IMG/VR virus record: IMGVR_UViG_3300032225_002102
Span: 65,292 to 129,291 of that record
DNA from: a virus
Taxonomy: Duplodnaviria > Caudoviricetes
Reading direction: 5' to 3' (one strand)
DNA length: 64,000 bases
The translations under genes and the position numbers were made by a program. Positions 34,214-57,594 of the stretch are shown one piece after another (position 1 is the first letter of the stretch; every line of letters starts with the position of its first letter). Under the pieces are notes generated by a model, which was not told the DNA's origin, did not search any database, and saw only the letters and a list, made by a program, of their open reading frames with translations.

Positions 34214-34770
34214 GATTTTAACATTTTTTTAACTAAATTATATTTTTTTAATCTATCTTCCATTCCATTTATTTTATGTGGAGATTCTAATTCTTGTATT
34301 CTTCCAGTATTTATAATACTACATACATTTGTAAAATCTCCAACATCTGCATATTTTTCTAAATTATTTTTTTCCCAATAAAAACAAGCTGATAATACTG
34401 CAAATTCAGGTTCAAGTAATTTTTTAGGATTTTTTACAAAATCTATGTTATATCCTAATTTTTTAGTCCATTGTGTAAATAAAGTGAAATTACTTTTTCC
34501 TGTAAGTTGAAAAATTCCCATACCTTTGTACTTTAAACCATCTCCTTTTTCAGTATTTCCTAAATCTTTACGAAATTCATATTGAACCCCCGAAGCAATT
34601 TCTTCCTTATAATATAAATTAGCTGTTTCATGTAAAACATTTGCTAAAAAACATAATAATCTATTTACAGTATTGATTTTAAATTGCTCTAAAAATTTAT
34701 TAAAGTACGGTATATACTCATCTCTATTTTTAATTCCTAATTTTTGAAAATCATCTTTATTAAATTCCAT
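34201..34770 (-). CDS. Glycoside hydrolase family 19 endolysin
   Basis: FLANVLHET, EEIASG..YE.R.DLGN, GDG.KYKG.G.FQLTGKSN, IN.G. Confidence 0.9.
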   Translation of the reverse strand: MEFNKDDFQKLGIKNRDEYIPYFNKFLEQFKINTVNRLLCFLANVLHETANLYYKEEIASGVQYEFRKDLGNTEKGDGLKYKGMGIFQLTGKSNFTLFTQWTKKLGYNIDFVKNPKKLLEPEFAVLSACFYWEKNNLEKYADVGDFTNVCSIINTGRIQELESPHKINGMEDRLKKYNLVKKMLKSWKQ

Positions 34771-35653
34771 TTTCTTTATAATTATATAAAAATATAAAAT
34801 CTGTGTTATTAGGAGTTACATTTCTTAATCTATTACTTAAACTTCCTTTATCCATATTTATATATTTTGCTGCTTCTTTTACAGTATTAAATATTTCTTT
34901 TGTTTTAATATTTATAACAGCTTTATTTGAATATTTTTTATTCATTTTTAATATTGACTGTTTTCTTTTTTCTAAATCATTATAATTTTCAAGAAACATT
35001 AATTTAGAAGGATTATAAGTTTCAAGTGATAATATTCTATTTAATTCTCTTCTACTTTTATTTAAATTTATAATAGAATTATTTGCTGTTTTGACATCTT
35101 TAAATACTTCTAAAGTTTCTATATTAATAACTTGTTTAGCATTAGGATGAAATATATTTAATCTTTCTTTAGCTTTTTCAGAAATTAATTTTTTAGTATG
35201 TTCTTTAAAAATTCTTTTACTTTTTAATTTCTTTTTTAAATTTTGTTTTTCAATTTTTAAATTTTTACTTATTTCATTTAATTTACATAAAACACTTTCT
35301 CCATTTTTATATTTTTCTTGATGAGTTTTTCTATTTTTTTCAATAGATTCAATAGAAGGAATTGCTTTTTTATCTTTTGTACTTACTAATATACAATTTA
35401 ACCCACTTTTTCCTATAACATTATAATACTCTTGCCAATATCTTTCACGTTCATTTAGTAAATTAATTTCACATTCTTCAAATATTTCAAATACATGATT
35501 TTCAATTCCATATTTTAAAATTGAATGACTTAATCTAACTTGTTTACCTAAATGATTAGCTTTATATTGTTTAAATCTTTTTTCAATATTAATAGATTGT
35601 CCAATATAAATTTTATTCGTAGGTGATGTAATTTTATAAATTCCACAAATCAT
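34760..35653 (-). CDS. GIY-YIG homing endonuclease inserted in the lysis cassette
   Basis: GIYKITSP..IYIGQS..R; NUMOD repeats; C-terminal FNTVKEAA HTH. Confidence 0.9.
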   Translation of the reverse strand: MICGIYKITSPTNKIYIGQSINIEKRFKQYKANHLGKQVRLSHSILKYGIENHVFEIFEECEINLLNERERYWQEYYNVIGKSGLNCILVSTKDKKAIPSIESIEKNRKTHQEKYKNGESVLCKLNEISKNLKIEKQNLKKKLKSKRIFKEHTKKLISEKAKERLNIFHPNAKQVINIETLEVFKDVKTANNSIINLNKSRRELNRILSLETYNPSKLMFLENYNDLEKRKQSILKMNKKYSNKAVINIKTKEIFNTVKEAAKYINMDKGSLSNRLRNVTPNNTDFIFLYNYKENGI

Positions 35654-40350: not shown

Positions 40351-43300
40351 TTACTCTTCTCTATTTTCTGCAAACTGTTCAAGTTCTTCTTCACTTACTT
40401 TTGTTTGAGTAGAAGCAGAGTTTTTATTTAATAGTTTAGTGTAATTAAGTTGTTGATCTAAATCTCCAAATCTATATAGTTGGTAAAGAGGTGAGAATAC
40501 AGATTTCATTAGTTTTCTTTCTATCTTTAAATCTCCTTTCTCATATCCTGCACCTGATTTAGCATATCTATCATCAAATTTTAAATTAAAATCAAACCCA
40601 TCATCATAATTAATATCCCACCCAAATAGTTGTGAAAGTAATCCTGTATTAGTATCAAACTGTCTTGTTAAAGCAAATGGATCTTTTACTTTTCTTGCTA
40701 TATAATCTAAACTTGAACTTGGTGAAGAAACAAATAAAAATTGTCCTGTATCATTAGTATATCTTGCAGTAAATAATTCTAATGCTTTAAGTATTTCACT
40801 TTTTTCTTCTTCATCATCATCGTTTAAAGCATGAAGAAATAATCCTAATAATGTTGCTCCTACTAAAAAGGTTAACTCGGAAGAAGCTCTAATTAAAGCA
40901 ATTCTTTTATTTTCATAATTATCATATTCAGAATTACCATATAACCATTCGTTAAATTTTTCAGAATTTTTACTTAGATTAGAATAACTTATTCTATCTG
41001 CTACAAATCCTGCTTGTTTAGCAATTACTTCAAATAATCCATAACTTAATGCACCTATTCCTTTTTTAGATATAATTGTTTTTATGTATCCTTTTAAAGA
41101 ATTATCTTTTTTTATTCCTACACTTATTTCAGCTAATGCTTCATTAAATTTTGAAAATATATTTGTAACAAATTGTCTTTGATAACCATCATCTACAAAT
41201 TCACCTGCTAATCTAACAAATTCAGATTTACCATATCTTACTTTTAATGAAGGATAAATCCAGTTAGAAAACACCATTGCCATTGATAATAAAGAATCAC
41301 GTTGTATTTCAGATTTAGAATATTTAGAATATTGACCATGTGCTAAATAATTTGCTGCTTCTATATTCCCTAATACTTTTGTTAATATTTCTATTTGTGC
41401 TGCTTCATCATTTTGTGCAATACCTGCCTTTTCCCAATTAAACTCAAATATCTGACCATCTTTTTTTTCAATTATATCTCTTAAATTAGTATCTCCAACT
41501 TTAAATCCTTTTAAAATAGCTAACATTAATGGTACTTGATTAGCATGTTCTGCTAATGAAGTAGATAAAAATAAAGTATCATAACTTAATACTCTATTAG
41601 ATAAAGATTTAGGAATTACTTGTCCTCGTAAATCTACCATATCTCCTTTAATAGCATCAAAAAACCATATTAATTGTGTAATTTCACTTTGATCATTAAT
41701 ATTTGTTTTAGTAGAATCTATAATAAAGTTATGAGTATTTTTCCAATATTCTGTTCCTGCATCACTTAAAATCTTTTCTGATAAACCAAATTTTTTACCT
41801 TGAGCAAGTAAAAAGTTATTAGTTTTTCCTGTAAGTAAGTTAGAACCAGAAGCAATAATATTATTTGCTAATACTTGAAAATTAGCTAATGCTTTTAATG
41901 TGTTTGTTATTTGTCTAACTGATAAACCACCCAAATTATAATCTACTGAAGGATCTCCATATATAAAATTATTGCTAAATTGAACTAATGCTCTTGCTGA
42001 ATTTTCTCCTACTTTTCCAAATAATTTATTTTTTGCAGCTGCTAACATAGTTTTATTAGAAGCTTCAACATTTACTTTTCTTGATGGTATTCCAATTGCA
42101 GTATCTCCTGCAAATAATGTTTTTAAAGTTAAAATCATAGGTTCTAACTGCTTCTTTTTTTCATAAGCTGTAGTAGAGGAATCAAATAAATGTAATGCAA
42201 GAAATAAATTTTCTTCTGTATCTTCATAAGAAACAGGAGAAGTATTTGTTGGATAAATTGATTTATTTAATTGTCCTGAAAGATATTGTTTTACTCTATA
42301 ATGATCAGGTTCATCATCTCTCAATATTCTATTAAATCTATCTGCTCTTACCATTTTACCTTCATCATTTTTTATCATAATGATTTTAGTATTTTCTTCT
42401 TTAAATTTAAATCCTTCAACATATTTAATTGTAGAATTACCTAATGCAGAAAGTCTTTCTAAAGCTGTTTTAGGATCTTGTTTAGCTATATTGATTAAAT
42501 AATGTCTTAATCTTTCTGTACCTAATCTATCATTTGATTTTTTATAACCTTCAATTAATTGATTATAATATTTTTTCATATTATCATTTTTACTCATTTC
42601 CTCAGATAAAGATTCCCATTTAGAATTTTTATTTATTGGAACTTGTAAATTACCAGAATATTTAAATATAGATACTATATCTAGTTCTTTCCATGAAGGA
42701 TCATTTAAATCTATAATTTTATATTTAAACTCTTCTTCTTCTTTAATCTTTACTAATAATTCATTACCATTAGAAACATAATCTTTTAGATCTTGTAAAT
42801 CAAATGTTCCTTCTTCAATTAGTTTTTTTAATCCACCTTTATATAACTTTCTTTCGTAAGTATTAAACCTAAAATAAGTATTACCGTTTTCATTTAATAA
42901 TTCTTCTAATTTACTCCATTCAGTTGTTTTACTTAATAAAGTATCAATTGCATTATCTTTTGATTTTAAATTTCTATAAAAAAAATCACTATATAATTTC
43001 TTTTGAATATTATCTTTAACTTGTGAAGGAGCAGTTACATTTGGATTAAATTGATCTTTTATATAAGTTTCTCCTCTTGAATTAGTATAAGTAATATCTA
43101 ATGCATTAGTATAGTTTATGGTATCATAAATATCATTTATTTTATCTATATCACCTTCTCTTATTATTCTAAATATTTCATTTACCGTTTTAGGTAAATC
43201 CATTACAAAAAGTTTTTGTTTAATTACAAATTCTCCTTTATTATACTCTGTTACAAAAGCTTTTCCTCTTCTTATTTTATATTTATTAAAAACACCTTTT

Positions 43301-45192
43301 TTATTTTCTTCTAACTCTATAAAATTACCTAATGCAATATCTTCTTCAGTAGCTAATTCTAATTCATCATTTTCTCCTATATATTTAATTTCTTGTACAA
43401 ATTTTCCTTCCCATTCTTTTTTTTGTTCTGATTCAAGTGATATACCTGCATCTGCTAATCCTAAATTAGCTTTTTGTAATGCAATTCTATTTTCTGTTTC
43501 TCCTTTTAATAATTCTCTTTGAACTAATGTTGCTGTTAATCCTAATATTGCATCATCATATTGAGTAGCTTGTTCAAACCATCTATCTGTTAAATCTATG
43601 TCTCTATTTGCTTCTACAAGTAGTTTTCTAATTGTAGCTTTATCAGCATAATACATTGATTTATTTGAATTTAATTTATTTTTTTCTGCTAATAAAATTA
43701 TTTCATTAATAGAATCTTTTGGTACATTCCTTGTTTCTAATACTTTTCTAAAATGAGTAAAAAAATCATCTTCAGGTAATACTTCTATTCCATTAATTTG
43801 AAGTACTTTATCTGTTAATCCTGCTGCTTCAACTATCTTTATAATGCTAGGATCTGTATTATATAAAGATACTCTTAAATCTGATTCAAATATTTTTTCT
43901 TTTGTGTATAATTCTTTACTTTGTCTATCTAAAATTTCAGATATAAAGTCTAGTTGTAACTGATAAGATTCTTTTTTTAAATTAAAAATTGTTTCGTATG
44001 ATTCGTTTATTGTAGCTAAAATAGATTTAGATTCTCGTTTAGAATCACTTTGTATTTTTAATATTTTTTCAAATAAATTATTAACTTCTTTATTTTCATT
44101 AGTAAACTTATCTCTTATTTTAACAACTAAATCTTGTAAATCACCAATAGCTGTATCAGAAAAAATATCTTTTAACCATTCTCTATTTTCTTTTTTAGTG
44201 TTTTCTGGAAATTGCTCCTCAACTAATTCTAATAAACCCATTTCAAATTGATAAGTATTTGTATTTTCCCAACTTGATTTATTTTTATTTGTTTTTTCAT
44301 AAAATTCTTCTAAAAAAGAAAATATGTGTTGCAACTCACGAAATTCAGTAAAAAACTCTCCAATAAATTGTTGTTTTTTTGAAAAACTGTTTTTGTTTGT
44401 TTCTGATTCTAATTTTTTTACTGCTTTTTCAATATATTTAAATTTATAATTAATTTTACCTATTATATTATTAGCGGTAATAATCATTAAAGATAAATCT
44501 GAAATTCTTTCCATTGATTCATCTTTTTTAATTTTATCTGATAATATTTTTAAATAATTTAATTGTTTATAAAGTTCATCTCTAAATTTAAGATCTTTAT
44601 TATTTCCATATTGAGTAAAATTAAATTGAAATTCTTCTACATCTTTACTTAACTTATCTAGAACATCATTAAGTATTTCTCCTTGTTCTTCATCAGTAGC
44701 ATAAACATTAAAAATATTTTCATCTATATTAAATGGAGGTACTAAAAAACTTTCTAAAACAGATTGTAAATCTTCTGCACGTGTATCTTTAATTAATCTA
44801 TCTACATCTTCTGGAGTAGATTGACTTAAATTAGCATCTTCTAATACTCTAACATCAGTAATTACTACATTTTTAATAGTATTTGTTCCAATAGTAACAT
44901 CATCTACATAAACAGTTCCTATTAGTTTTGTTCTATTTAAATGATATTTTTTATTAATTTCATTTATAAATTTTAATTGCTCTTCATTCTTTTTTGGGTT
45001 TTGCGAAAGAAGTAATACTTTTATACCATCACGCATACCTGTAGTAAATAAACCAGAAGCATTTAATTTTGATTTTATATCAATATCAATTTCTTCTAGT
45101 TTAGCAATTGTATCATCCGAGATAGAATCTGGATTTTTATCATTTTCTGATTTTTGAAAATTCTGTAAATATGGTATTGTGCAAGTTGACAT
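40351..45192 (-). CDS. Large virion cargo/ejection protein (last of the crAss RNAP-associated set), C-terminal TM
   Basis: Synteny with RNAP; AANY.AHGQY segment; TM LTFLVGATLLGLFLHAL followed by DDDEEE; single Cys at position 4. Confidence 0.7.
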   Translation of the reverse strand: MSTCTIPYLQNFQKSENDKNPDSISDDTIAKLEEIDIDIKSKLNASGLFTTGMRDGIKVLLLSQNPKKNEEQLKFINEINKKYHLNRTKLIGTVYVDDVTIGTNTIKNVVITDVRVLEDANLSQSTPEDVDRLIKDTRAEDLQSVLESFLVPPFNIDENIFNVYATDEEQGEILNDVLDKLSKDVEEFQFNFTQYGNNKDLKFRDELYKQLNYLKILSDKIKKDESMERISDLSLMIITANNIIGKINYKFKYIEKAVKKLESETNKNSFSKKQQFIGEFFTEFRELQHIFSFLEEFYEKTNKNKSSWENTNTYQFEMGLLELVEEQFPENTKKENREWLKDIFSDTAIGDLQDLVVKIRDKFTNENKEVNNLFEKILKIQSDSKRESKSILATINESYETIFNLKKESYQLQLDFISEILDRQSKELYTKEKIFESDLRVSLYNTDPSIIKIVEAAGLTDKVLQINGIEVLPEDDFFTHFRKVLETRNVPKDSINEIILLAEKNKLNSNKSMYYADKATIRKLLVEANRDIDLTDRWFEQATQYDDAILGLTATLVQRELLKGETENRIALQKANLGLADAGISLESEQKKEWEGKFVQEIKYIGENDELELATEEDIALGNFIELEENKKGVFNKYKIRRGKAFVTEYNKGEFVIKQKLFVMDLPKTVNEIFRIIREGDIDKINDIYDTINYTNALDITYTNSRGETYIKDQFNPNVTAPSQVKDNIQKKLYSDFFYRNLKSKDNAIDTLLSKTTEWSKLEELLNENGNTYFRFNTYERKLYKGGLKKLIEEGTFDLQDLKDYVSNGNELLVKIKEEEEFKYKIIDLNDPSWKELDIVSIFKYSGNLQVPINKNSKWESLSEEMSKNDNMKKYYNQLIEGYKKSNDRLGTERLRHYLINIAKQDPKTALERLSALGNSTIKYVEGFKFKEENTKIIMIKNDEGKMVRADRFNRILRDDEPDHYRVKQYLSGQLNKSIYPTNTSPVSYEDTEENLFLALHLFDSSTTAYEKKKQLEPMILTLKTLFAGDTAIGIPSRKVNVEASNKTMLAAAKNKLFGKVGENSARALVQFSNNFIYGDPSVDYNLGGLSVRQITNTLKALANFQVLANNIIASGSNLLTGKTNNFLLAQGKKFGLSEKILSDAGTEYWKNTHNFIIDSTKTNINDQSEITQLIWFFDAIKGDMVDLRGQVIPKSLSNRVLSYDTLFLSTSLAEHANQVPLMLAILKGFKVGDTNLRDIIEKKDGQIFEFNWEKAGIAQNDEAAQIEILTKVLGNIEAANYLAHGQYSKYSKSEIQRDSLLSMAMVFSNWIYPSLKVRYGKSEFVRLAGEFVDDGYQRQFVTNIFSKFNEALAEISVGIKKDNSLKGYIKTIISKKGIGALSYGLFEVIAKQAGFVADRISYSNLSKNSEKFNEWLYGNSEYDNYENKRIALIRASSELTFLVGATLLGLFLHALNDDDEEEKSEILKALELFTARYTNDTGQFLFVSSPSSSLDYIARKVKDPFALTRQFDTNTGLLSQLFGWDINYDDGFDFNLKFDDRYAKSGAGYEKGDLKIERKLMKSVFSPLYQLYRFGDLDQQLNYTKLLNKNSASTQTKVSEEELEQFAENREE

Positions 45193-45193
45193 A

Positions 45194-46921
45194 TTATATA
45201 CAAGCTATGTTTATATTGTAATTACTCGGATCTATTGGTAATCTTTCTTCTTGATTTATTGAGATATTTAAATTATCATCTTTACTATAGTTTAAATTTC
45301 TATAACCTTCATAGTAAAAATTAAATTTATCTGATGAACTATATATAGGTTTAAAAGCTTTCCAGTCAATAAAATCTTTATCTCTTCCCATCATAAGTTT
45401 TGCTTTCATTATTTCTTTCCATAACTTAAAATAGTTCTCATGTTCTTCTTGATTTGGTGTTAATCTCACAAAAAAATCTATAACATATCCTGTATCTTTT
45501 ATCCAATCTCCTTGTTTATGATCTACAGTTTTAGTTTCTTCTATTATTTCAATTTCTTTTGTAAAAAAATTCTTTTTTCTATATGATACTGTTTCTGTAT
45601 GTTTTCCATCTTCACTATAAAATTCTCCATTTATTACTCCTTGTATTGTAAGACTTTCCATAGATTTATGTTCTCCCCCATAAAAATTGTTTATTATTTT
45701 ATAAGTGGGATATTTAGCTTTAAATTTTTTAAAAAAATCTTGTCTTTCAATAATAGGAAGAATTAATTCATTACTTTCTTCTTTAAAAGAATTTTGTTTT
45801 GATTCTATTAATTTTAAATCTTCTTTATTTATTTTTTCAAAAGGAATTACCCAATCTATATCATGTAAATTTTCTTTTTCTGTTCTATAAACAGTTCCTG
45901 CTTTTCTTAAAGCTAATGAGCCAGTAAGAACAATATTTAATTCTTTTTGTCCAAAATTAACTAATTCTTCAGCAAAAGAATCTGTTTTAATTGTAGGAGT
46001 ATATTGTTTTAATATTTGTGAATCTTTTAATTTATAATCAAAATAATCATAATTTTGATTTAAAATCTCATCGACAATAGATAATGATAAATTATTTAAT
46101 TTTTGTTTTTTCTTTATGTTATCTCTATTAAAATTTTCTAAAAATTTTTCCAACATTTTTACAATAGTATTCCATAAATCAAAATCATCTTTAGTCCAAG
46201 ATTTATCATTTATTTTTTGAAATTCTTGAGGATTATTATAATGGAGTATTATTTGTTCTTTTAAATAATCTATAATAACTAAATCTCTAATTTTATTTTT
46301 CCATACGGTTTTATCTTCTATAAATCCTTCTTTAGATTCAATTAAGTTACTATAATATTTAAATCTTTCAGAATATTTATCCCATTTACTTATAAGGTAT
46401 CTTAAATCACTTCTAATTTTATTATTTTTTTTACCTAGCATAGAATATGCAAAATATGCTACTTCAGGTAAAATACTATTACCTTTTTCATACGCAATAG
46501 ATTTAGTTATTAAATCAGAAGCGGAATAAGCATCTAATCCTAATTCTTCTTTTAAATTATTATACTCAGTATCTGTAATTCCAAAATCTTTTAGAAATCC
46601 ACTTTTTAATAAATTTTCTAGTTCATTTAAATTTTTACTTGAAACATCTGATTGTAATACTTTATTATTAATAGAATCAATTTCTGTAAAAACTTCAGTA
46701 TTAGGTATAGCTACATTATTTCTAACTTGGTATAAATTAACATCTTTACCAAGTTTATTTGAAGCTAATAGATCTAATTCTCTAATAGCTTTATAAAAAT
46801 CATTGTTTGATATTTCATAAGATTCTTCTAAAAATCCATGAGCAACAAGTTTGTTTTTTGTTGATATTTTAGAATTATTAGGTATTTTATTGTATGTTAT
46901 TTCACATTTGAATATGCTCAT
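45194..46921 (-). CDS. Virion cargo protein with Pol-beta-superfamily nucleotidyltransferase domain (likely start 46921, TAATG overlap)
   Basis: IVLTGSLAL...LHDIDW, third Asp in VIDFF, K..MGRDKDFID. Confidence 0.75.
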   Translation of the reverse strand: MSIFKCEITYNKIPNNSKISTKNKLVAHGFLEESYEISNNDFYKAIRELDLLASNKLGKDVNLYQVRNNVAIPNTEVFTEIDSINNKVLQSDVSSKNLNELENLLKSGFLKDFGITDTEYNNLKEELGLDAYSASDLITKSIAYEKGNSILPEVAYFAYSMLGKKNNKIRSDLRYLISKWDKYSERFKYYSNLIESKEGFIEDKTVWKNKIRDLVIIDYLKEQIILHYNNPQEFQKINDKSWTKDDFDLWNTIVKMLEKFLENFNRDNIKKKQKLNNLSLSIVDEILNQNYDYFDYKLKDSQILKQYTPTIKTDSFAEELVNFGQKELNIVLTGSLALRKAGTVYRTEKENLHDIDWVIPFEKINKEDLKLIESKQNSFKEESNELILPIIERQDFFKKFKAKYPTYKIINNFYGGEHKSMESLTIQGVINGEFYSEDGKHTETVSYRKKNFFTKEIEIIEETKTVDHKQGDWIKDTGYVIDFFVRLTPNQEEHENYFKLWKEIMKAKLMMGRDKDFIDWKAFKPIYSSSDKFNFYYEGYRNLNYSKDDNLNISINQEERLPIDPSNYNINIACI

Positions 46922-49900
46922 TATTGACAACCTTTAGTTTTTAAAATTTCTAATTCAGATTCTATTTGTTTTTTATTGTTTTTTAAATTATCATAAGGTG
47001 TTTGCCAAGTGTTAGGATAATTTAAAATAAATTCTTCAAGATTTACTACAGCTTTATCATCAGCAGTTTCTTCTCTATTAACCATTGCATAAGCTGCTCT
47101 TGCTAAAGTATCGTATGACATACCATCCTTTCTAATATATGCTCCATTAGTAGCAGTACTACGTTTGTTTTTATCAATTAAATTATCAAATGATTCAGGT
47201 TTTATTCTTCCACCATTTTTAAAATAACGATAAAAAATACCATCTGTTGTATCTAAAAACGTTTCTAATCTAGCTTCAACTTCTTGTAATTCTTGAAGTA
47301 ATTTTAATTGTTCTTGTGAAATATCACCTACTACTTCACTTTGAGTTCCTTGTATATTACTAGTTTCTGTACTTACTACTTTAAGTTCTTCTCTTACTTC
47401 CATTAATAACTTAGGAAATTCTTTACCCCATTTAGTTTTATCTTGGGTATGAGTAAGAGTAGCGTCTCCTGTTGCTAAAAGTTTAGTTAGAGCATTTGGA
47501 TTTTGTTTAAATGAAAGAGTAAGAATATTTTTCATTATTCCTGATGAATCTCTGTCCCACGTAGCTTGTGATAAATCAGTTATTTTTCTACCTAATGCTT
47601 TTGCTTGAGAACCTGAAGCATTTTTTAATTGTTCTACTATTTTAAGATTTTCTTTACTAGCAGGTGTATTTAATAAAACAGCATTAGTAAACCAAATTTT
47701 CATTGCTTGGAATGCTCCTTCAGGTGTTCTAAAAGTTTGATCTCCTATTGTTACAGGTCTTTCAGCAAAATTACTTAATTCAGCATTTTCTCCTGTACCT
47801 GCATAAATATTAATTTTATTACTTTTATCTACTACACTTGCTGGTTGAGCTTGATTAATATTTGGATTCTCCCATTTAGTTACATCTGGATTAATAGTAG
47901 AATCTGTATTTTTAAATCCTAATTTATTTAATTCATCATGTATCCAACCTTCTCCAAGTTTATTATAACCTTTACCTTTATCAATATAAGATTTACTATC
48001 TAACAATACAAATGCTCCTGAATTTAATGCTTTTACAATTTCTTGAAAAGCTTTATCTCTATTAGTAAAATCTTTTTCTGTATAAGAAGTTCCTCCATTA
48101 ATACTTGCAAAATACGTTTTACCAATTTCATAAACACTTGGATTTACAGGTGCATTTCTATTTTGGTATTGTTCTGCATAAAATTCTGTACTACTATTAT
48201 TTCTTCCAAATCCAATAAATCCACCATTAGCTCTTTCTGATTTAAAAGGTGCTTTTTCTGCATCAATTTGAACTTTTGTTTCTACTTTAAAAGGTTTGAA
48301 ATTAATATTTACGTTAGAATTCCAATCATATTCGTTAATCAAATAATCAAGTGCTGTTGCATGAGTAGCATAATTTTTTTCTTCATAATATCCAATAGGT
48401 CTGCCTTTAAGTTCACCATTTTTAATATTATTGATTATTAAATTTCTATATTCTGCTGTAGCACTTACTATATCATAATTATTTCCTGTAATTAACCAAT
48501 CTATAAATTTTTTAGTAGCTTTTATACCTTTTTCTTTTGCTGTTCCAGTTTCTTCTTTTATATCAAAAGGATTTCCTATTGTTACAGGTCTTTGAACTAC
48601 ACCATTAGATCTAAAATTTTCTGCAAATGATTTTGTACTATTACCTCTATAAGCTACAATTACTTGATCTCCGTAATTTGCTTTAAACTCAGGAAAAAAT
48701 TCACTCCAAAAAGTTTTACTATTATAAACTAATCCTAAATCTTTTGGTAATACAACATTTAAAGATTGTGTTTTCTTTTCTAATTTAGAATAAATTTCAT
48801 CTGTTATATTTTGAATTTCTTCATTTTGATTATTCATTCCTTCATTATAACCTTTATCAAAGTTAGGTGAATATCTATTAGAAAGCAAGTTTTTATAAAA
48901 TTGAATATATCCTGTTTTAGTACCTTCTTGTTCTAATTGATTAATTAAATCTTCTAATTTACTTCTATTTTCTTCTTCTGATTTAGTTGTATCTTTTTTA
49001 GAATTAACTTCTGTTGTAGCTGGAATTAATCCTGCATCTATTGTTAAATCAGTAATTGTAGAACCATAATAAGGTTCTCTCATATAAGTTATTATATTTG
49101 GATCTGGTAATTTACTAAAATCAAGTGTTCCTTCTATTAGTTCTTCATTTGTATTATAAATGCGATAATCATCTCCTGATTGAATAACTGTAAATATAAC
49201 TCTACCATCATTAGTTATTAATTCATATTTTTCAGCATTATCTATTTCACTTTCTATTTCTTTTATTGATAAAGAATAACTTTTTTTACCAATACTTACT
49301 TCAATTTTATTATTAGGAAATATTCTTTTATAAGAAGCTCCTCTATAATCTATATATTGTGGAAGTGTTAGTTTTAATCCATTTCCAGTATCTTTAGTAT
49401 CAACTCCTATTTTTGTATAATCTCTTTCTTCACCATTTTTATTTATTTCTAAATAAAGCGGTGGTTGATTAATTTGTAAAAGATTTGAATCTAATTCTAC
49501 TTTTACATTATTTTGAAATCTATATACTTTTAAAATTTCTGTATCTGGTGAATCTTTAATTTTTAATCTATGTTTTTTATTTTTAATATCAGAAAACCAT
49601 AATGATTTGAATTTTGCAGTCATTACACTTTCCTCTTTTTCTGAAAGTTCTTTAAGTTGTTTAAAATTATCTAATACTTTACTTATTTCTCTAAACATAA
49701 TAGTAGGAAATATTTTACTAATATTATATTGTCTAAATTGTAATCCATCTTTTAAAATAAAATAAGCAAATAAATCTTTAGCAAATTGTTTTTCTTTTTC
49801 ATTTGGAGAAGTGTACATTTCTAAAAATAAATTACGTATGTTATCTTGTTGTGCAGGATTTAATTTAGATAAAGAAGCTAATCTTAAACTATCAAGTGTT

Positions 49901-52900
49901 TCTGAATTTTTTAAAGTATTTACTTTTCCTTTTATACCAATAATATGTTTTAGTAAATCATAACCTTTTTTAGATTTATTTTCAAAAAATTTATCTAAAA
50001 AGTTTTCTTCTCCACTTAATGGATTTAGTCTATTAAAATTTAAAAAATCAATAATATAACTATTATTGGGATTTACATTCATTTTTAATAATTGAATAAT
50101 TAAAAACGAATTAACATCTTTTTCTATTTTAGACTGTAAATCAGTATCATCTTTTTTATTTGTATTAATTAATACTGCGTTTTTTAATTTTTTAGAAATA
50201 GATTCATATTCAATAAACATTTGACTTAGATTATCATTTACTAAATCCTCTGTAATTTTAACAAATGATTTAATATCTAAAGCTTTATCAGAATTTTTTA
50301 AAGATTCCCAATTAAAAAAATTTGTTGTATTTTTATCTGATATTTGTACTGTAACTTCATCTTTATTAATTAATCCTAATTCTACCGCAGTGGTTATTAC
50401 ATCTGTTAATTCACTTAAATTACCTTTAGTATATCCTTTTTTACCTTTAATGAGTTTAGCTAATTTAGAGATTTCTTTACTCATATCTCCTACTTTAAGG
50501 TATGTAGCTAATATATCTTTATCATCATTATATAAACTCTCAAATATTTTTTGTTCTGTTAAATTTACTTGATTAGTAATTTTTAAATTTTGTACTAATA
50601 CATTAAATTCTCTTTCTTCTTGTGTTAATTTTTTATTTTTTTCTGCTCTAGATTCTATTTTATTTTTACTTACTGAATCTTTATATTTTTTTACTATTTT
50701 AGAGTTTACAATAGCAATAGCTTCATCAAGTGAAAATTCTAAAGAAGTTAATAAATCTATTACATTTAAATCATCTCCTTTAATTCCGTGTCTTTTCAGT
50801 TGCTCTTCTTTTGCTTCATCAGTAGTTGTAGAAGTTAAAGTATTTTTTACACTAAATACTCTTTCTTGTAAATGATTAGTATAACCAAACTTTACAGGAT
50901 TTCCATTATAATTAAATTTAAATTTAGATGATAATGATAGTCCTATTCGATTAGCTACAATAGCTACCAAAGCTCCATTTACAACAATTCCAATACCCTG
51001 TCTTGCAATAATAGTACCTTGTTGATAATTAGAATGAGTAGATATACTATTGTGAGGAATGCTTTTATTTTTTTCAATATTTAATAAATCTGTTTCTTTT
51101 CCATTAATAATTCTTTGAAATGGATATACATCATAACCATTTAAAGTTGGTACTATTTTAACACTACCTTCTACTTCACCATTATTATAAATTTTTTCAA
51201 TCTCTTCTAAACTTTTAGATTTAGAATAAAATATTTTTGAATTTTCTTGTAAATCTTCAATTAAAGATAAATCCATAGAAATATCTCCTGTACCTCTTGC
51301 TGGATTTTTAACATCACCAAAGAGTACACTATCACTTGTTAGCATTGCTCTCTGCAAATCAAGTATTTTATTATTTAATACTGCATTATTTAAAGAGTTA
51401 TTTAAAAAATCATTTTTATGTACTTTTTTAAGAATTTTAGATTTTTCTTGAAACTCTTCTTTAGTAGAAATTAAATCAAATTGTTTTAAGGTTTCTTCAT
51501 AATATTTTTCTCTAATAAATTCTTTTTGAGATTCTAATAATAAATCTTTATCTTTTAATTCAAAATAAAAATTAACATTATTTAAAAAATCTTTGTTTTT
51601 TGTTTTATATTCTTCTATATTTTTATATATGTATTCAATTTGTTCATTTATAGATTTTCTTGTACTTTTATTTGCTTTTAATTCAGCAGTTAAATCTCTT
51701 GTATTTAAATCTTTTTTATCTTTATAAAAATCTTGAAAAGCATCAGATAATTCAAATTGTAAATTTTCTTTTTCTTGATATAAAATTTCTCTTTCTTCTT
51801 TATTTTTAGTTTCTTTTAATTTATCATAATAAGATTTAATTTCAGTTTGCAATTCTTTAATATTATCTGGTAGATTTTCAGATAAACCAGATAATCTATT
51901 AAATAATACAGTAGCTCTATCTAATAATTCTTGTTTTGAATTTTGTAATTCATTTATTTTATCAAATGCTCTATTTACTTCAGGTTTAAGTATTTCAAAA
52001 TAAGGTTTTAAATACTTTCTTTGTTCTTTTAAAAGTATTTTATTATTTTTAACATCTTCTAAAATTGTATTATAAACTGGATCATTTGTTAATTTTTCTT
52101 TTAAAGCTAATTTAGCTGCTTTAGAACTTTTAAAAATCCATTTTTTATAATCTTGAAATGTATCTTCATATTTTATAAATTCTCCATTTTCCCAATATCC
52201 TTCATATTGAGTAGAAAAAACTTTATCAATATCAAAGTCAGATCCTGCAATTTGAACAATTTCTTTAGGAACAACAATAGTATTACCTATTGTATCATCA
52301 AGAAAATCAACCCATTCAATATTAATTGAAGATTGTTTATCTTGTGAAGGAATACGCACACCTAAAGCAAATCTAATACTATCCATTATGGATGTTTGTT
52401 TACCATTTAATTTAGGCATCATTGCTTCTGATACCCAAGTATTAAATACGTAATTATCTCCTTGTTTAATATATGATTTTTTCATATATCGTAAAGAATC
52501 AGAAAAATATATTTCATCTCCATTTGCAATTCTTGCTTGCATTTCTGGAGATTCAAAATACATGTGAAATTCACTTTTTGATTTTGTTTTTGATTGCTTT
52601 ACTTTTTTTGATTTTGATTTTTCTTTTCTTTTTTGTTCTAAATACCAATCACGATGATCATAAATTAAATCTGATAAATCTTCTGGTTTATTCTCAATGA
52701 TTATTTGATCATATCCTTTTGTTTTATTATTGATAACTTCCCATGTATAATCTACTATTACACCATTTTCTTTAATTGGAATAAGTTTTTTTAGAACTCT
52801 AACTCCATGATCTGAAGCTAATACATAAGCATTACCAGCTACTTTATGAGATAGTACTCCTGTACTAAAATGTTTTACTACACTTTGAATCATTTTATCT

Positions 52901-55900
52901 TTATTCAAAGGAATATTAACATTATATAATGGTTCTTTAGTAATAGGATCTGTTGCTAAAAATTCATAATCTTGACCTGAACCTCCAGTAAGTTTTAATC
53001 CCTCTATTAATCCATCAAAAAAGTATTTATAATCAGGTATTTGTTTTATAACTTCTCCTTTTTCATTTTTTACTTGCTTAAATAATTCTTTAACTGCTAA
53101 TTCTTTACCATTAATATTTCTACTCTTTTTTAATTCTTCATAAAGTTTAACTAATTCATCAGCAGATAACTTTTCTTCTTTTGTTAATATTCCTCGTTTA
53201 TCAAATATTTTAATTGAAATATCTCCAGTTAATTCATTTGATAAGATTTCTATATTTTGAGTAGGTGTTGTAATTTTTACTTTACCTTGTGGATTTTGCA
53301 CTTGTTCTCCAAAATAATCAGCATCAATTGCATTAGCAAAAGTATATTTACTATTTAATTCATCTGCAAAATCAAAATCAGTATCTTTTTTAATTACATT
53401 ATTATTATCATCGAGTATTTCTTTAAATGGTAAAATATTATGTTGTGAAGTTTTTAATGCTGAAGGAGGTATAATAGTATCAATTTCATAAGCTTTTCCT
53501 CTATAAACCCATATAGATTCTTCTCCTTCAATTTGCATTTTACGATAACCATTTAAAAACATTCTTTGAGAATAGTTAATTAAATTTTTATCTAATAATC
53601 TTGGTTTCCATTCTTTAAATACTTTATTAGTATTATCCCAAATAATTTCTCTTGTATTACCTTCTGTTTGAAATGTTCTTCCATATTTATCTACTACAAT
53701 AATATTATTATCAAAAGTAAATTCATTTCCATTTACTGAAGTAGGTTGTATAATAGTTCCAACAGAAGTACTTTTAATTGTTAATGTTGGATTTAAACCT
53801 ACTTTAACAGCTTGTTCTCCATTAGCAGCAAGAGGTTTTAAAGCAGAAAGAAATGAATCTGAATTAACCATTTCATCCCACTCTTCAGGTGTTAAATCTA
53901 CACCTTGTTCTGTTTTATCTAAAAGATCTGATACTCTTTTTGTTAATTTAGTTGTTCCATGTAAAATCTTTCTTAATCCTTTTGGAGTGGATTTCATAGC
54001 TCCATCAGCATGTTTAATGTTTTTCTTATCGTTATCAGATACAGCTAAAGGTTCTTCAATAATAGCGTATGTTATTTGATCAATACTATCATAAATTCCT
54101 AATGATTCATTTTTAATACTTGTTTTAGTACTTAATGTAGCACCAGCAAACATACGACTTCTTTTATATGCTTCTGAAGAAGTTAATTTAAAATTAAAAT
54201 TATGAGAACCATATCTCATTCTATTAGCCATAGTACTACCTAACCAATAGTTAAATAAAGCAGTTTTTAATTTATTTTCTGTAGTTGCTTTTGGGTTAAA
54301 TAATTCAACATTAGTTGTATTTTTACCTAATGTATCATTTCCTTTTGATTTATCTCTAAAAGCATGAGGTAATTTATCTAATAAACCTTGTTTTTTTACC
54401 CATTGATACTCTTCTTCTAGAAATTTAGTAACAGTATTAAAATCAATATCATCAATATTTAATTCTTTACCTGTCAAAGCTGCAATTAATAGATCATTAT
54501 TTATAAAAGGTTCTACTTCAGGTGAAAACTTTAACCCTTTAAAACCCTCTTCACCTGCTTTATAATACTCCGTAGATACAATTATACCCTCAGTTTCTAC
54601 TTCAAGTTTTTCTCTAGTAAATTTTCCTACATTATATCCTTCATAAACATTTTGATATTCTTTTAATTTATATAAATCATTTCTTGTAATTTCATTACCA
54701 TCTGTTATTTTTAGTTCTTCTAATTGATTTTTAAGATTTAAATGATTTTCTTGTATTTTATCATATTCTGTTTTGATTAATTTAAAAACATGATTTTTTG
54801 CTTCTTCTGAAAGTTTTTTATTATTATAAGAATTTTTATCAAACGGAATCATCAAATAATCAATTTGTTTTGATGCTTCATTGTGTCCTAAAGATACAGG
54901 TACAAATAAATATTCTTTTCCGTTTATTGTTACACTTTTAGCATTTTCTGATAATAATATAAGATTTGTTAATGCATATTCTGCAGCACCCATATCATTC
55001 AATGCTAATATATTTTTTTCAGTATATTCTGAATCTTTCTCAATTAAAAATCCATCTTTTGTTTTATAAGAATAAGATTTAATTTGCGTTGTATCTAATG
55101 TAAGCAATTTAATCTGTTCCAATAATTTAGGTTCTAATACACCATTTATTGAAATCATATCATTTAATGGATTTTCTTCTTTAAAAGAATCTAATATTGT
55201 ACTTTTAATAACACTTCCATCAGTTTTAATAGCAATTACTCCTCCTTCTTTCATTTTTTTAAAATCTTTTTCAGATTTAAAACCTGATGCAAATTTTAAA
55301 GTAAAAGTTGGATTTTGATGAAGATAAATTGAATTGTTATTTCCATCTTTATAAGAAGTTTCAATTACTCTTTCATCATATTCTATATTACCATCAGCAA
55401 TAAAATTAAAGAATGAATTAAAATCTTTATCATCATTTGCTAATTTTGTATTTTCTGTTGTTAAATCATCCGCTTCATAAAATTCAACATAATCTGAACT
55501 TTCTTTAAGAAAATCATTAATAAATTTCATTTTAGCAAATAAAGTATCTAATACAAACTCTTGTTTATTTAAAAGTTTTGCATTTTTTCCTTTTATTAAA
55601 TCAGTAATAAAATTAAAAAGATATTCTCCACTTACATCTATACCTAATAAATTTAAAAGATTATTATATTCTGTTGCAATTCCAATTACATCTTGTTCTA
55701 ATTTAATTAATTTAATTTTGTTTTCTAATTTTATAAAACTATCATTAAATTCAGATTTATAAACTTCAAATTCTTTTTTAAATTGTAATTCACGATAATT
55801 AGAATTCCAAAAGTTTTTCTGATTATTTCTTTTTGAACTTGATTCTACATCAGATACTTTTGCCCATCCATTTTCAATATCTATTTCTGTACGATATACA

Positions 55901-57594
55901 CTTCGAGTAGCTAAGTTAAACCCTCTCAAAGATAATAAAAATCTTTGAACGTGTAATGGTTTAGCTTCAGTATTAAGTATCTCTGATAAAGGCTTATCTC
56001 CTGTTAATTGATTTATTATTTTCTTTTTATTTTCATCAGAAATATCAACTATAACATCTTTTAATAAAGCGTTAATAAATGTTCTAGTATTTTCATTATC
56101 TTGCCTACCTTTAATTTTTTGAACATTTTCATTGTATAATGAAAGTTCAATTAATTTGCTCAATCTTTCATTTTCATTATATGTATTAGATAATTTACGT
56201 ACAATAGCAGAATAAATCATTTTTTCATCTGCTATTTCAAGAATATCTATTTTAGTACCTACTACATCATTTTCATTTATTACATTTCCATCGAGATCTG
56301 TTACTATTGAATCTCTATCCATATAAGCAATAGTTTTTCCAGTATTATCAATAAATAAACTACTTTGTATTTTACCAGTAGTGTTCATTAATATTTGAAG
56401 TTCTTTACTTCTACTTTCTAAAGATTGTTGATTAGCATTTTCATCATAATTTTGTGTTTTACCTTTTTCATCTTCTTCATTTTCATCATTATCAAAAATA
56501 GTTTTATTAGCTTCAATTTGTTCTTGAATTTCTTCAGTTAAATTAGAATCCTTTTTTTCTAATAATTCTAATAAATCAACTAATGTATTTTGTTTTAATT
56601 CATCTTCTTCTAAATTTGCTTGTTGTTCAAGAAATTCAGAATATTTTTCAATAGCTAAATCAATTATTGAATCTTTATTGACTTCTATTCCTTCTGATTC
56701 ATATATGTTTTTAGCTAATACAGCTATTGATTTTTTCATTTGAGAAATCTCATCTGAAGGAATACTTTTGTTTTCTGAATTATAATATAATCTAAAAGAA
56801 GGAATTACATTATCATTATTATTTACAATCTTATTGTTTTTATATTCTCCTCTTGAAATTTTATCGAATAAAGCTAATATTTCTGTTTCGTTTGAGGTAA
56901 GATTAAATAAAGCTTTAATTTTTTCATATAATCTATGAAGTAATTCAGCTACTTTTTGTGCATTTTTACCTAAGAATGAAAGTTTCTTTGTTAAACTATT
57001 TATTCTGTTTTGTGAATATCTATTTGATTTACCTTCTGAATTATAATAATTTACAAAATCTTTTACTATTTCTTCTTCAAAAGCATATTGTTCTAATACT
57101 TCATTACTTATATTAGGAAATTTATTTTGTAATTCTTTAATGTACTCATTAAAAGATTTTTTTTCTGTTTTTAATCTTTGTGTAAGTAATTCTCTACCAG
57201 CATTATACATTAGTGATTTTTCATCATTATCCATTAATGTTTGAATAATAGCATGAAATGCTTCTTCTGCTAATTCGTTTTTACTAATTTTATCTCTAAA
57301 GAAAAATGTTTTTTTATAAAAAGCAGCAGTACCTTGAATATCAAATCCTTTAGATTTTAAAGCATTTAAAGTATCAAACTCATATTGATTTGCTGGTACT
57401 AATTTATCAAGAAAAGATTTAATTTGTTCAATTGAATAACTAGACGTTTGTTCACTTTCAGAATAACTTTCATAATCAGGTAAAAAATATCCATTTTGTA
57501 CAAATACTTTGTACATATTTTCTTTACCAATTGAATCAATCCATTTTTTAACATCAGGATGATTTATATTTAAACATAATGATTTATCAAACAT
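46921..57594 (-). CDS. Virion-packaged two-barrel RNA polymerase (crAss type) with degenerate zincin N-domain and C-terminal accessory domains including NADAR
   Basis: GVRIPSQ and GSDFDIDK (52225-52239, about aa 1786); ADGA; EEAFH; NADAR at 47383-47817. Confidence 0.92.
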   Translation of the reverse strand: MFDKSLCLNINHPDVKKWIDSIGKENMYKVFVQNGYFLPDYESYSESEQTSSYSIEQIKSFLDKLVPANQYEFDTLNALKSKGFDIQGTAAFYKKTFFFRDKISKNELAEEAFHAIIQTLMDNDEKSLMYNAGRELLTQRLKTEKKSFNEYIKELQNKFPNISNEVLEQYAFEEEIVKDFVNYYNSEGKSNRYSQNRINSLTKKLSFLGKNAQKVAELLHRLYEKIKALFNLTSNETEILALFDKISRGEYKNNKIVNNNDNVIPSFRLYYNSENKSIPSDEISQMKKSIAVLAKNIYESEGIEVNKDSIIDLAIEKYSEFLEQQANLEEDELKQNTLVDLLELLEKKDSNLTEEIQEQIEANKTIFDNDENEEDEKGKTQNYDENANQQSLESRSKELQILMNTTGKIQSSLFIDNTGKTIAYMDRDSIVTDLDGNVINENDVVGTKIDILEIADEKMIYSAIVRKLSNTYNENERLSKLIELSLYNENVQKIKGRQDNENTRTFINALLKDVIVDISDENKKKIINQLTGDKPLSEILNTEAKPLHVQRFLLSLRGFNLATRSVYRTEIDIENGWAKVSDVESSSKRNNQKNFWNSNYRELQFKKEFEVYKSEFNDSFIKLENKIKLIKLEQDVIGIATEYNNLLNLLGIDVSGEYLFNFITDLIKGKNAKLLNKQEFVLDTLFAKMKFINDFLKESSDYVEFYEADDLTTENTKLANDDKDFNSFFNFIADGNIEYDERVIETSYKDGNNNSIYLHQNPTFTLKFASGFKSEKDFKKMKEGGVIAIKTDGSVIKSTILDSFKEENPLNDMISINGVLEPKLLEQIKLLTLDTTQIKSYSYKTKDGFLIEKDSEYTEKNILALNDMGAAEYALTNLILLSENAKSVTINGKEYLFVPVSLGHNEASKQIDYLMIPFDKNSYNNKKLSEEAKNHVFKLIKTEYDKIQENHLNLKNQLEELKITDGNEITRNDLYKLKEYQNVYEGYNVGKFTREKLEVETEGIIVSTEYYKAGEEGFKGLKFSPEVEPFINNDLLIAALTGKELNIDDIDFNTVTKFLEEEYQWVKKQGLLDKLPHAFRDKSKGNDTLGKNTTNVELFNPKATTENKLKTALFNYWLGSTMANRMRYGSHNFNFKLTSSEAYKRSRMFAGATLSTKTSIKNESLGIYDSIDQITYAIIEEPLAVSDNDKKNIKHADGAMKSTPKGLRKILHGTTKLTKRVSDLLDKTEQGVDLTPEEWDEMVNSDSFLSALKPLAANGEQAVKVGLNPTLTIKSTSVGTIIQPTSVNGNEFTFDNNIIVVDKYGRTFQTEGNTREIIWDNTNKVFKEWKPRLLDKNLINYSQRMFLNGYRKMQIEGEESIWVYRGKAYEIDTIIPPSALKTSQHNILPFKEILDDNNNVIKKDTDFDFADELNSKYTFANAIDADYFGEQVQNPQGKVKITTPTQNIEILSNELTGDISIKIFDKRGILTKEEKLSADELVKLYEELKKSRNINGKELAVKELFKQVKNEKGEVIKQIPDYKYFFDGLIEGLKLTGGSGQDYEFLATDPITKEPLYNVNIPLNKDKMIQSVVKHFSTGVLSHKVAGNAYVLASDHGVRVLKKLIPIKENGVIVDYTWEVINNKTKGYDQIIIENKPEDLSDLIYDHRDWYLEQKRKEKSKSKKVKQSKTKSKSEFHMYFESPEMQARIANGDEIYFSDSLRYMKKSYIKQGDNYVFNTWVSEAMMPKLNGKQTSIMDSIRFALGVRIPSQDKQSSINIEWVDFLDDTIGNTIVVPKEIVQIAGSDFDIDKVFSTQYEGYWENGEFIKYEDTFQDYKKWIFKSSKAAKLALKEKLTNDPVYNTILEDVKNNKILLKEQRKYLKPYFEILKPEVNRAFDKINELQNSKQELLDRATVLFNRLSGLSENLPDNIKELQTEIKSYYDKLKETKNKEEREILYQEKENLQFELSDAFQDFYKDKKDLNTRDLTAELKANKSTRKSINEQIEYIYKNIEEYKTKNKDFLNNVNFYFELKDKDLLLESQKEFIREKYYEETLKQFDLISTKEEFQEKSKILKKVHKNDFLNNSLNNAVLNNKILDLQRAMLTSDSVLFGDVKNPARGTGDISMDLSLIEDLQENSKIFYSKSKSLEEIEKIYNNGEVEGSVKIVPTLNGYDVYPFQRIINGKETDLLNIEKNKSIPHNSISTHSNYQQGTIIARQGIGIVVNGALVAIVANRIGLSLSSKFKFNYNGNPVKFGYTNHLQERVFSVKNTLTSTTTDEAKEEQLKRHGIKGDDLNVIDLLTSLEFSLDEAIAIVNSKIVKKYKDSVSKNKIESRAEKNKKLTQEEREFNVLVQNLKITNQVNLTEQKIFESLYNDDKDILATYLKVGDMSKEISKLAKLIKGKKGYTKGNLSELTDVITTAVELGLINKDEVTVQISDKNTTNFFNWESLKNSDKALDIKSFVKITEDLVNDNLSQMFIEYESISKKLKNAVLINTNKKDDTDLQSKIEKDVNSFLIIQLLKMNVNPNNSYIIDFLNFNRLNPLSGEENFLDKFFENKSKKGYDLLKHIIGIKGKVNTLKNSETLDSLRLASLSKLNPAQQDNIRNLFLEMYTSPNEKEKQFAKDLFAYFILKDGLQFRQYNISKIFPTIMFREISKVLDNFKQLKELSEKEESVMTAKFKSLWFSDIKNKKHRLKIKDSPDTEILKVYRFQNNVKVELDSNLLQINQPPLYLEINKNGEERDYTKIGVDTKDTGNGLKLTLPQYIDYRGASYKRIFPNNKIEVSIGKKSYSLSIKEIESEIDNAEKYELITNDGRVIFTVIQSGDDYRIYNTNEELIEGTLDFSKLPDPNIITYMREPYYGSTITDLTIDAGLIPATTEVNSKKDTTKSEEENRSKLEDLINQLEQEGTKTGYIQFYKNLLSNRYSPNFDKGYNEGMNNQNEEIQNITDEIYSKLEKKTQSLNVVLPKDLGLVYNSKTFWSEFFPEFKANYGDQVIVAYRGNSTKSFAENFRSNGVVQRPVTIGNPFDIKEETGTAKEKGIKATKKFIDWLITGNNYDIVSATAEYRNLIINNIKNGELKGRPIGYYEEKNYATHATALDYLINEYDWNSNVNINFKPFKVETKVQIDAEKAPFKSERANGGFIGFGRNNSSTEFYAEQYQNRNAPVNPSVYEIGKTYFASINGGTSYTEKDFTNRDKAFQEIVKALNSGAFVLLDSKSYIDKGKGYNKLGEGWIHDELNKLGFKNTDSTINPDVTKWENPNINQAQPASVVDKSNKINIYAGTGENAELSNFAERPVTIGDQTFRTPEGAFQAMKIWFTNAVLLNTPASKENLKIVEQLKNASGSQAKALGRKITDLSQATWDRDSSGIMKNILTLSFKQNPNALTKLLATGDATLTHTQDKTKWGKEFPKLLMEVREELKVVSTETSNIQGTQSEVVGDISQEQLKLLQELQEVEARLETFLDTTDGIFYRYFKNGGRIKPESFDNLIDKNKRSTATNGAYIRKDGMSYDTLARAAYAMVNREETADDKAVVNLEEFILNYPNTWQTPYDNLKNNKKQIESELEILKTKGCQ

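Follow-up and report, generated by a model that had tools for sequence, protein, structure and literature searches.

The 64,000-nucleotide stretch of viral DNA considered here (the window; positions 65,292 to 129,291 of the IMG/VR virus record IMGVR_UViG_3300032225_002102, class Caudoviricetes) encodes, at 45194..46921 on its minus strand, a protein of 575 amino acids (aa) that forms a small link among the giant proteins of a crAss-like cargo block. This link protein, g575, represents a probable nucleotidyltransferase (NTase) of a family new to the domain databases and is by sequence not a member of the MenT/AbiEii group, and its predicted fold is very probably that of an active enzyme. Its gene fills a slot with sharp recombination boundaries (window positions 46642 and 45260) in which close relatives carry different enzymes, each framed by terminal cysteines. 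Together, these observations suggest that crAss-like phages load interchangeable enzymes into a protein thread that is injected ahead of the DNA.

The reading frame of g575 runs on the minus strand from an ATG at 46921 to a stop codon at 45194-45196, and its translation comprises an N-terminal adaptor, a helical domain, an NTase domain and a C-terminal tail that bears a cysteine. An identical 575-aa protein is already on record (P0002, from a public collection), which favours this start over an upstream TTG at 46930. An initial annotation, made from the letters of the sequence, had placed the gene between an RNA polymerase and the last cargo gene, and its coordinates were confirmed, as was the identity of the neighbour, which carries DFDID, as the RNA polymerase. 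The same holds for the motifs from which that annotation had argued for an NTase, namely GS/DxD, a third Asp and a K..GRxKD..D signature: TGSLAL lies at aa 333 (GS at 334-335), HDID at 353-356, the third Asp at D482, and the C-terminal motif consists of K508, GRDKD (512-516) and D519. Likewise, the protein contains Cys6 and Cys574 and no internal cysteine, in keeping with the two terminal tags first noticed.

An exhaustive HMMER search of 1.84 billion representatives returned 181 matches to g575, 50 of them below 1e-30. In an alignment of 20 sequences with 42-56% identity to g575, residues G334, S335, H353, D354, D356, D482, K508, R513, K515, D516 and D519 are invariant, and G334, S335, D354, D356 and D482 are still invariant over 44 sequences with identity down to 25%. 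Outside this family, neither single-sequence nor profile searches matched g575 in Pfam (E up to 1), PHROGs, PADLOC or the PDB sequences, and tblastn found no match among 50,697 GenBank phage records. A profile of the NTase domain only, compared with 5.8 billion proteins (131-459 aa), recovered fragments of the phage family itself and no named small NTase. A few family members show weak Pfam matches to Polbeta and NTP_transf_2.

A model of the full-length protein, obtained by supplying AlphaFold2 with the 20-sequence alignment, reached a mean predicted local distance difference test score (pLDDT) of 80 and exceeded 90 for aa 96-549; aa 1-40, 54-95 and 550-575 are predicted to be disordered (pLDDT below 50). 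Four parts follow one another on the minus strand: the N-terminal adaptor with Cys6 (aa 1-93, 46643..46921), a low-confidence flexible region that is retained when the enzyme core changes; the helical N-domain (aa 96-297, 46031..46636; pLDDT above 90), which always accompanies the NTase domain; the Pol-beta-type NTase domain (aa 298-549, 45275..46030), supported by its own model, structural matches and invariant columns; and the C-terminal tail with Cys574 (aa 550-575 and stop codon, 45194..45274; pLDDT below 50). In the model, aa 298-549 form an alpha/beta domain in which the GS opens a helix (334-341), D354-I-D356 lies on a strand (354-359) and D482 on a later strand (479-486), a placement that corresponds to the layout of Pol-beta-type nucleotidyltransferases. 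Thus, g575 has both hG[GS] at the start of a helix and [DE]x[DE] on the next strand, and D482 provides the third carboxylate on a later strand of the modelled domain.

Folded alone (aa 296-552, pLDDT 85) and compared with 48,161 PDB chains by VIA-align, the domain has the Megavirus poly(A) polymerase as its top match (Z 7.8, 143 residues aligned), and further NTases follow: MenT1 (Z 7.6, 152/195 residues), LnuA (Z 7.1, 128/158), TglT (Z 6.6, 150/290), the Helicobacter NTase 4ok0 (Z 6.4, 139/225) and ANT(2'') (Z 6.3, 142/175). Its neighbours in a protein language model carry PF19244, PF10706, PF09970 and PF19502. Because the structural scores are modest, the NTase assignment rests jointly on the fold matches, the invariant catalytic set and the language-model neighbours. 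With NTases as top matches and the catalytic set intact, the Pol-beta-type fold expected by the initial annotation is borne out.

The helical N-domain is less readily placed: in structure it only weakly resembles PprI and the N-terminal domains of LF, EF and Certhrax (Z 4.5-4.8), and LPD23, which belongs to polyvalent proteins, is carried by its neighbours in the language model (score 0.96); both observations are leads only. Possibly, this domain is LPD23-like or a degenerate zincin-like one. An active zincin protease was considered and rejected, as g575 has no HExxH and the matching position reads PEVAY, which is not invariant.

Evidence for an exchangeable slot comes from a near-identical relative, L001, whose DNA matches the window at 96-98% identity to the end of the polymerase gene and over the first 280 nt of the slot gene beyond it. 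The similarity ends at window position 46642, restarts at 45260—22 codons ahead of the stop—and runs on through the g1613 orthologue, the last giant gene of the block. Between these boundaries, L001 encodes a 326-aa protein with an ART-PolyVal ADP-ribosyltransferase (ART) core (PF18760) in place of the NTase. The piece exchanged corresponds to aa 94-553 of g575, exactly the folded part of the model. In addition, the MS.F.C adaptor is common to 19 proteins of 118-638 aa with exactly two cysteines each, four of which have ART-PolyVal cores, three HExxH cores and two NTase cores; some are barely more than adaptor and tail, and the cores of the rest are unassigned. Conversely, the NTase core of g575 is 56-61% identical to cores that stand behind a MATCPNKN-type adaptor and 55% identical to that of P0003, whose adaptor is as in g575. 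Being similarly close to cores behind either adaptor, it indicates that cores and adaptors seem to have separate histories.

The NTase module is also absent from the three cargo proteins of crAss001 in a BLASTP comparison and thus represents, by sequence comparison, an accessory and exchangeable cassette. This agrees with the early view of g575 as an accessory enzyme, which is further backed by its absence from the GenBank phage records and its replacement by the ART-PolyVal core in L001. Presence, absence and replacement of tagged cassettes, which a comparison of related phages had been expected to reveal, were all found at this locus, and the idea of a plug-in system is matched, as a pattern only, by the one adaptor and Cys tail that surround different cores in 19 proteins. 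As a pattern, the exchangeable Cys-tipped slot is well supported. At another locus (L006, 8957-10011), two genes separate the polymerase from a link that combines ART and NTase: one encodes a 131-aa mini-link tagged with Cys at either end, the other a GIY-YIG homing endonuclease whose ends have no Cys; a 93-aa open reading frame without Cys comes after that link, so the tags are confined to the members of the chain.

The module is not always encoded by a gene of its own. In many phages, the two-domain module forms the N-terminal part of a protein of ~2000-2450 aa that has Cys only at its N-terminus. The C-terminal third of g1613 is colinear with the C-terminal parts of such fused proteins (for instance, g1613 aa 1044-1567 with P0053 aa 1568-2017), and g575 and g1613 together amount to 2188 aa, equal to one fused protein elsewhere, with a Cys pair where the others have a peptide bond. 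Eleven IMG/VR loci divide into four with a stand-alone link, five with a fusion and two with a TGA-interrupted gene. Given this colinearity, g575 and g1613 can equally be read as the split form of a fused protein, with a Cys pair at the junction. The description of g575 as inserted into the operon as an extra link therefore holds in that it is a separate polypeptide here, and in that respect only: elsewhere it is the N-terminal part of the last giant, and by sequence the module is widespread in one part of the crAss-like phages. Overall, the initial annotation is partly supported, with two corrections, the split form of a common fusion being one and the new NTase family the other.

The two TGA-interrupted loci (L015 at 6830-6832, and L016; UViG_3300031951_000081 and UViG_3300032116_000194) have one in-frame TGA in an NTase gene whose frame is otherwise intact. 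Since the TGA falls exactly at the conserved Trp (K-W-T) of all relatives, it looks like TGA-to-Trp recoding in these loci, not a broken gene. Fused proteins of 2000-2500 aa (P0053, P0059, P0061, P0063, P0075 and others) have a HEFxH zincin motif ~80-90 aa past the NTase module and outside it; HExxH is absent from g1613 and crAss001 gp49, and crAss001 gp47 has HEAFH at aa 2157. From these sequences, a protease module moves between members of the chain.

In the window, g575 belongs to a tightly coupled row of four minus-strand genes, g2086, g3557, g575 and g1613, whose junctions read, in this order, TAAtATG, TAATG and TAAtATG; at the second, stop and start share one base, so that the g3557 stop overlaps the g575 start. 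The first gene (57596..63856) encodes a gp47-like giant of 2086 aa with weak similarity to crAss001 gp47 and a single Cys at aa 2085. The second (46921..57594) encodes a giant virion-type RNA polymerase of 3557 aa with Cys7 and Cys3556, which is similar to crAss001 gp50 around the catalytic motif and whose DFDID at aa 1786 identifies it as a two-barrel RNA polymerase. The last (40351..45192) encodes a gp49-like giant of 1613 aa, colinear with crAss001 gp49, with a single Cys at aa 4. The three giants thus correspond to gp47, gp50 and gp49 of crAss001 (BLASTP), and a giant with a DFDxD polymerase motif lies between two other giants, as is characteristic of a Crassvirales cargo block. g575 shares its strand and block with tail-fibre genes, endolysin genes and the cargo giants.

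A striking cysteine pattern connects these proteins. Over a total of 7831 aa, the four cargo proteins have 6 Cys, each of them no more than 7 residues from an end, where the 1.23% Cys of the other open reading frames in the window would predict 97 (Poisson P about 1e-33). At all three junctions in the window, a Cys near the C-terminus of the upstream protein faces a Cys near the N-terminus of the next. Across 184 homologues, internal cysteines number 40 in 206,591 aa; 91 of these proteins have Cys at both ends and 62 at the N-end only, a group to which 43 of the 55 proteins with at least 1700 aa belong; in nearly all homologues, a Cys falls within the last 1-7 residues. The order was invariable in the loci checked: the first protein has Cys at its C-end only, those in the middle at both ends, the last at its N-end only. 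The junction pair is present between split genes and absent from fused ones. Facing Cys pairs occupied each junction in 6 metagenomic loci, 11 IMG/VR loci and 6 GenBank phages.

This terminal-cysteine rule held in every locus checked, comprising five metagenomic loci, the 11 IMG/VR loci, crAss001, DAC15, Flavobacterium phage Fpv1, CrAssphage LMMB and cr108_1. (As to the search for related loci, g1613 as the only query found none, and a four-sequence alignment found one.) It extends to Cellulophaga phage phi17:2 (L026, NC_021798, 20996-34500), which is a Lightbulbvirus and not a crassvirus: gp039 ends in its single Cys, the 517-aa gp038 carries Cys4 and Cys516, and Cys3 is the only one in gp036, so that a doubly tagged 517-aa protein lies between two singly tagged giants, and all three are annotated as virion structural proteins. 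Separately, aa 220-424 of gp036 weakly resemble the helical N-domain of g575 family members (E = 1.6e-7). In crAss002 (L010, MN917146, 15088-15200), the annotated start of gp33 puts 34 residues ahead of the first Cys (aa 35); a Met inside the frame, with Ser-Cys next to it, suggests that the real start lies ~32 codons downstream, in which case the rule fits. A role of the N-terminal Cys as a lipoprotein signal was rejected on direct reading of the sequences, which have no hydrophobic leader ahead of it.

How might these features work together? In the mechanism that we propose, translation of g575 would be tightly coupled to that of its two neighbours, the polymerase gene upstream and the gp49-like gene downstream, and its product would be packed in the capsid with the other cargo proteins. 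There, Cys6 would be bonded to the polymerase (Cys3556) and Cys574 to the last protein (Cys4). All four proteins would then exit before the DNA in a single unbranched thread, which would come apart in the reducing cytoplasm of the host. The freed enzyme, with nucleoside triphosphate (NTP) and Mg2+ at D354, D356 and D482, would then add a nucleotide to a host macromolecule—an RNA 3′ end or a protein—and this transfer would weaken host defence or other host functions before the first phage transcript is made.

The steps of this mechanism differ in strength. That g575 is packaged and ejected is probable, based on the suppression of cysteines, the fusion to gp49-like proteins and the virion annotations of crAss001 and phi17:2. 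That the cargo proteins are tied by disulfides, as the facing cysteines and the analogy with other phages suggest, is favoured by a smaller margin over the absence of such bonds. As for its role, we lean modestly towards a host-directed effector, since free exchange with ART and protease-like cores favours an arsenal-type function such as that of polyvalent proteins. Taken as a whole, the explanation of g575 as an accessory, host-directed effector module of a packaged cargo block is, in our estimation, slightly better than an even bet. A more general version is tentative and, in our view, slightly less likely than not: adaptor and tail may constitute a general loading system, in which any core between them is tied by two disulfides into the injected thread and freed by cytoplasmic reduction, the slot being a hypervariable arsenal site (NTase, ART, protease-like core or nothing) whose cores recombine at the adaptor boundaries and where Cys pair and peptide bond are interchangeable.

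The most serious alternative places the NTase in the early transcription apparatus, where it would act on the 3′ ends of the earliest phage transcripts, by tailing or another modification, while tied or fused to polymerase-associated proteins. Giant viruses and poxviruses pack a poly(A) polymerase alongside their RNA polymerase. For g575, the best structural match is the Megavirus polyadenylate synthase, the language-model neighbours include phage clusters with PF19244 (Poly_A_pol_cat), and the module invariably either follows the polymerase directly or forms the N-terminal part of the polymerase-associated, gp49-like protein. Yet, we treat the Z scores of MenT1, LnuA and ANT(2'') as tied with that of the poly(A) polymerase (within 1 unit), the module is missing from crAss001 and had no tblastn match among the GenBank phage records, and the same adaptor frame holds an ADP-ribosyltransferase in the near-identical relative and protease-like cores or none in others. 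A core that is so freely swapped is unlikely to be an essential transcription factor, and we regard this alternative as unlikely, though the best of those considered.

Less likely still, g575 could be an ordinary cytoplasmic enzyme or a structural spacer that is never packaged, its terminal cysteines serving metal binding, homodimerisation or folding. Disulfides are not expected to form readily in the host cytoplasm, and a single terminal Cys could also give homodimers. However, the junction pair tracks gene splitting and is missing in fusions, the first and last proteins have no Cys at their outer ends, and internal Cys are nearly absent over the full set of homologues, as in the ejected proteins of N4-like phages; moreover, the orthologous giants are virion proteins of crAss001, and a matching disulfide has been seen in phage A4. 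Finally, it is quite improbable that the NTase acts inside the particle or on phage parts, for instance by adding nucleotides to cargo proteins or to the ends of the DNA, with protection or priming as the purpose: Pol-beta-fold enzymes do include terminal transferases and protein-AMPylating enzymes, and the domain travels with DNA-associated cargo and has a helical N-domain that could bind nucleic acid, but the capsid interior has no NTP supply, and the ART and protease-like cores interchangeable with the NTase are typical of host-directed polyvalent-protein effectors.

Several points weigh against a packaged, host-directed NTase. No sequence method linked the NTase domain to the named NTase families. 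The fold comparison that the initial annotation had called for gave a divided answer: NTases head the lists at Z 6.3-7.8, and Foldseek against the PDB found nothing with E below 0.001 for the full and domain models; no structural match attains Z 8, and the same lists include unrelated complex-I subunits with scores of Z 5-7 (one of them Z 6.9). The top match, a poly(A) polymerase, suits transcript handling as well as an anti-host role. As for the disulfides, the crAss001 paper does not contain the word 'cysteine' and gives disulfides for tail and portal-vertex proteins only (PMC10172136). In the crassvirus literature searched, we found neither a mention of the terminal cysteines nor a report of a disulfide between cargo proteins, a silence that also suits an unpackaged g575.

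If the readings favoured here are right, their implications reach beyond one phage. In crassviruses, the most abundant phages of the human gut, the narrow tail has to let through protein amounting to about a megadalton, and the slot makes the question of how this protein is delivered and what it does concrete. Should the Cys tips tie the links, gene order would set the order of ejection and the redox state of the host would set the release of the cargo, and proteins of choice could be fitted with the adaptor, packaged and so carried into Bacteroidota by phage particles; the adaptor-only proteins look like natural empty carriers. The NTase itself is a candidate for a new host-takeover or counter-defence enzyme.

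Further features of the window deserve mention. A NADAR domain occupies aa 3269-3392 of g3557 (47419..47790, minus strand; Pfam PF08719, E = 1.4e-11, 45.4 bits against a cut-off of 35.1; phrog_1017), just ahead of the C-terminal Cys tag. The L001 orthologue also has NADAR, followed directly by the ART-PolyVal link, and the polymerase gene of the GenBank crass-like phage cr126_1 is annotated DUF1768. The NADAR domain of g3557 could be an injected enzyme that reverses ADP-ribosylation. The frame of g2086 is open upstream of its first ATG (window 63857-64000) to the end of the 129,291-base record, so its true N-terminus may lie beyond. Elsewhere in this crAss-like genome (24.5% G+C), homing-endonuclease-like genes (phrog_314) lie in the replication block (13824-14582, plus strand) and beside an endolysin gene (34760-35653, minus strand), and rIIA-like and rIIB-like genes (phrog_612 and phrog_609) lie at 15651-19121 on the plus strand.

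Among known systems, the polyvalent proteins of phages and conjugative elements (Iyer, Burroughs, Anand, de Souza, Aravind 2017, PMC5512222) come closest in concept. Among them are N4-like proteins in which the virion RNA polymerase is joined to ART, lysozyme, PBECR and MPTase domains; the Pol-beta NTases of polyvalent proteins are versions from conjugative elements only, and cysteines or disulfides are not mentioned (PMC5512222). In both cases, unrelated enzymatic effector domains have their genes among those of the virion; the polyvalent domains enter the host with the DNA as infection begins, and g575 would do likewise. Of the polyvalent trait of several catalytic domains, g575 has one clear instance, to which its relatives add ART-PolyVal, AAA_33, GNAT or HExxH, and g3557 combines polymerase and NADAR. 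Unlike the NTases of that study, the domain of g575 belongs to a larger, unrelated family and is found in a phage RNA-polymerase cargo block, to which it would thus extend the theme. Also unlike polyvalent proteins, g575-type modules are joined by peptide bonds and, apparently, by terminal Cys pairs between separate products.

With the MenT/AbiEii and LnuA/ANT(2'')-type NTases (PDB 8an4, 6j7n, 6y56, 4wh5, 4xje), g575 shares an NTase core followed by a helical C-terminal part with a conserved Lys/Arg/Asp motif. The hG[GS], DxD and third-Asp elements are common to g575 and the MenT/LnuA/ANT-type enzymes, and 128-152 residues superpose at Z 6.3-7.6. Motif K508-x4-R513-x-K515-D516-x2-D519 is similar in character to motif IV of AbiEii/MenT, which we take to be of the K..A...R...RD..D type, and differs from it in spacing. 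Unlike the MenT/LnuA type, g575 has two insertions in its model, a long beta-hairpin (aa 439-468) and a helical one (aa 366-403), and its NTase is fused to a 200-aa helical domain and Cys-tipped tails. The kinship with AbiEii/MenT that had been suggested at first was not upheld at the sequence level: PF08843 (AbiEii/DUF1814) had no match in a six-frame search of the whole phage record (E up to 10) and is not among the 25 most-matched Pfam families for 44 g575 family members, nor is there an adjacent antitoxin gene (AbiEi/MenA), the neighbours of g575 being the RNA polymerase and the gp49-like giant gene.

Closer in gene context are the cargo blocks of cultured crassviruses. Mass spectrometry places gp47, gp50 and gp49 of crAss001 in the virion, from which they are believed to be extruded in a partly unfolded state (Bayfield et al. 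2023, PMC10172136); crAss001 virions also contain disulfides in tail and portal-vertex proteins (PMC10172136). In phi14:2, g065-g067 form the RNA-polymerase cargo block (Drobysheva et al., bioRxiv 10.1101/2020.03.07.982082), and fused polyprotein forms are known. The phage studied here shares with crAss001 the DFDxD polymerase motif and the same terminal-Cys pattern, in which gp47 C2339 faces gp50 C5 and gp50 C2404 faces gp49 C5; whereas these cultured phages have three cargo proteins and no NTase module, it has a fourth, small and enzyme-bearing link.

A precedent for the proposed bonds comes from cyanopodophage A4, in whose pre-ejectosome cryo-electron microscopy shows the packed ejection proteins gp27 and gp26 bonded by a disulfide that joins Cys1715 of the former to Cys5 of the latter (PNAS 2025, PMC12002296). 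Its geometry, a Cys in the C-terminal region bound to Cys5 of the next protein, is that predicted at each junction here. Yet, the A4 bond is a single link in a compact pentameric assembly of an unrelated podophage and is not described as a general rule, a chain of at least three proteins or a slot for exchangeable enzymes. The ejection proteins of the Schitoviridae (N4 gp50, DEV gp71), including the virion RNA polymerase, are likewise Cys-depleted (PMC11445570). Here, however, the likeness ends at the termini: the N4-like proteins have no Cys at all, whereas the cargo proteins of the crAss-like chain are Cys-free inside and present one Cys at each end that faces a neighbour.

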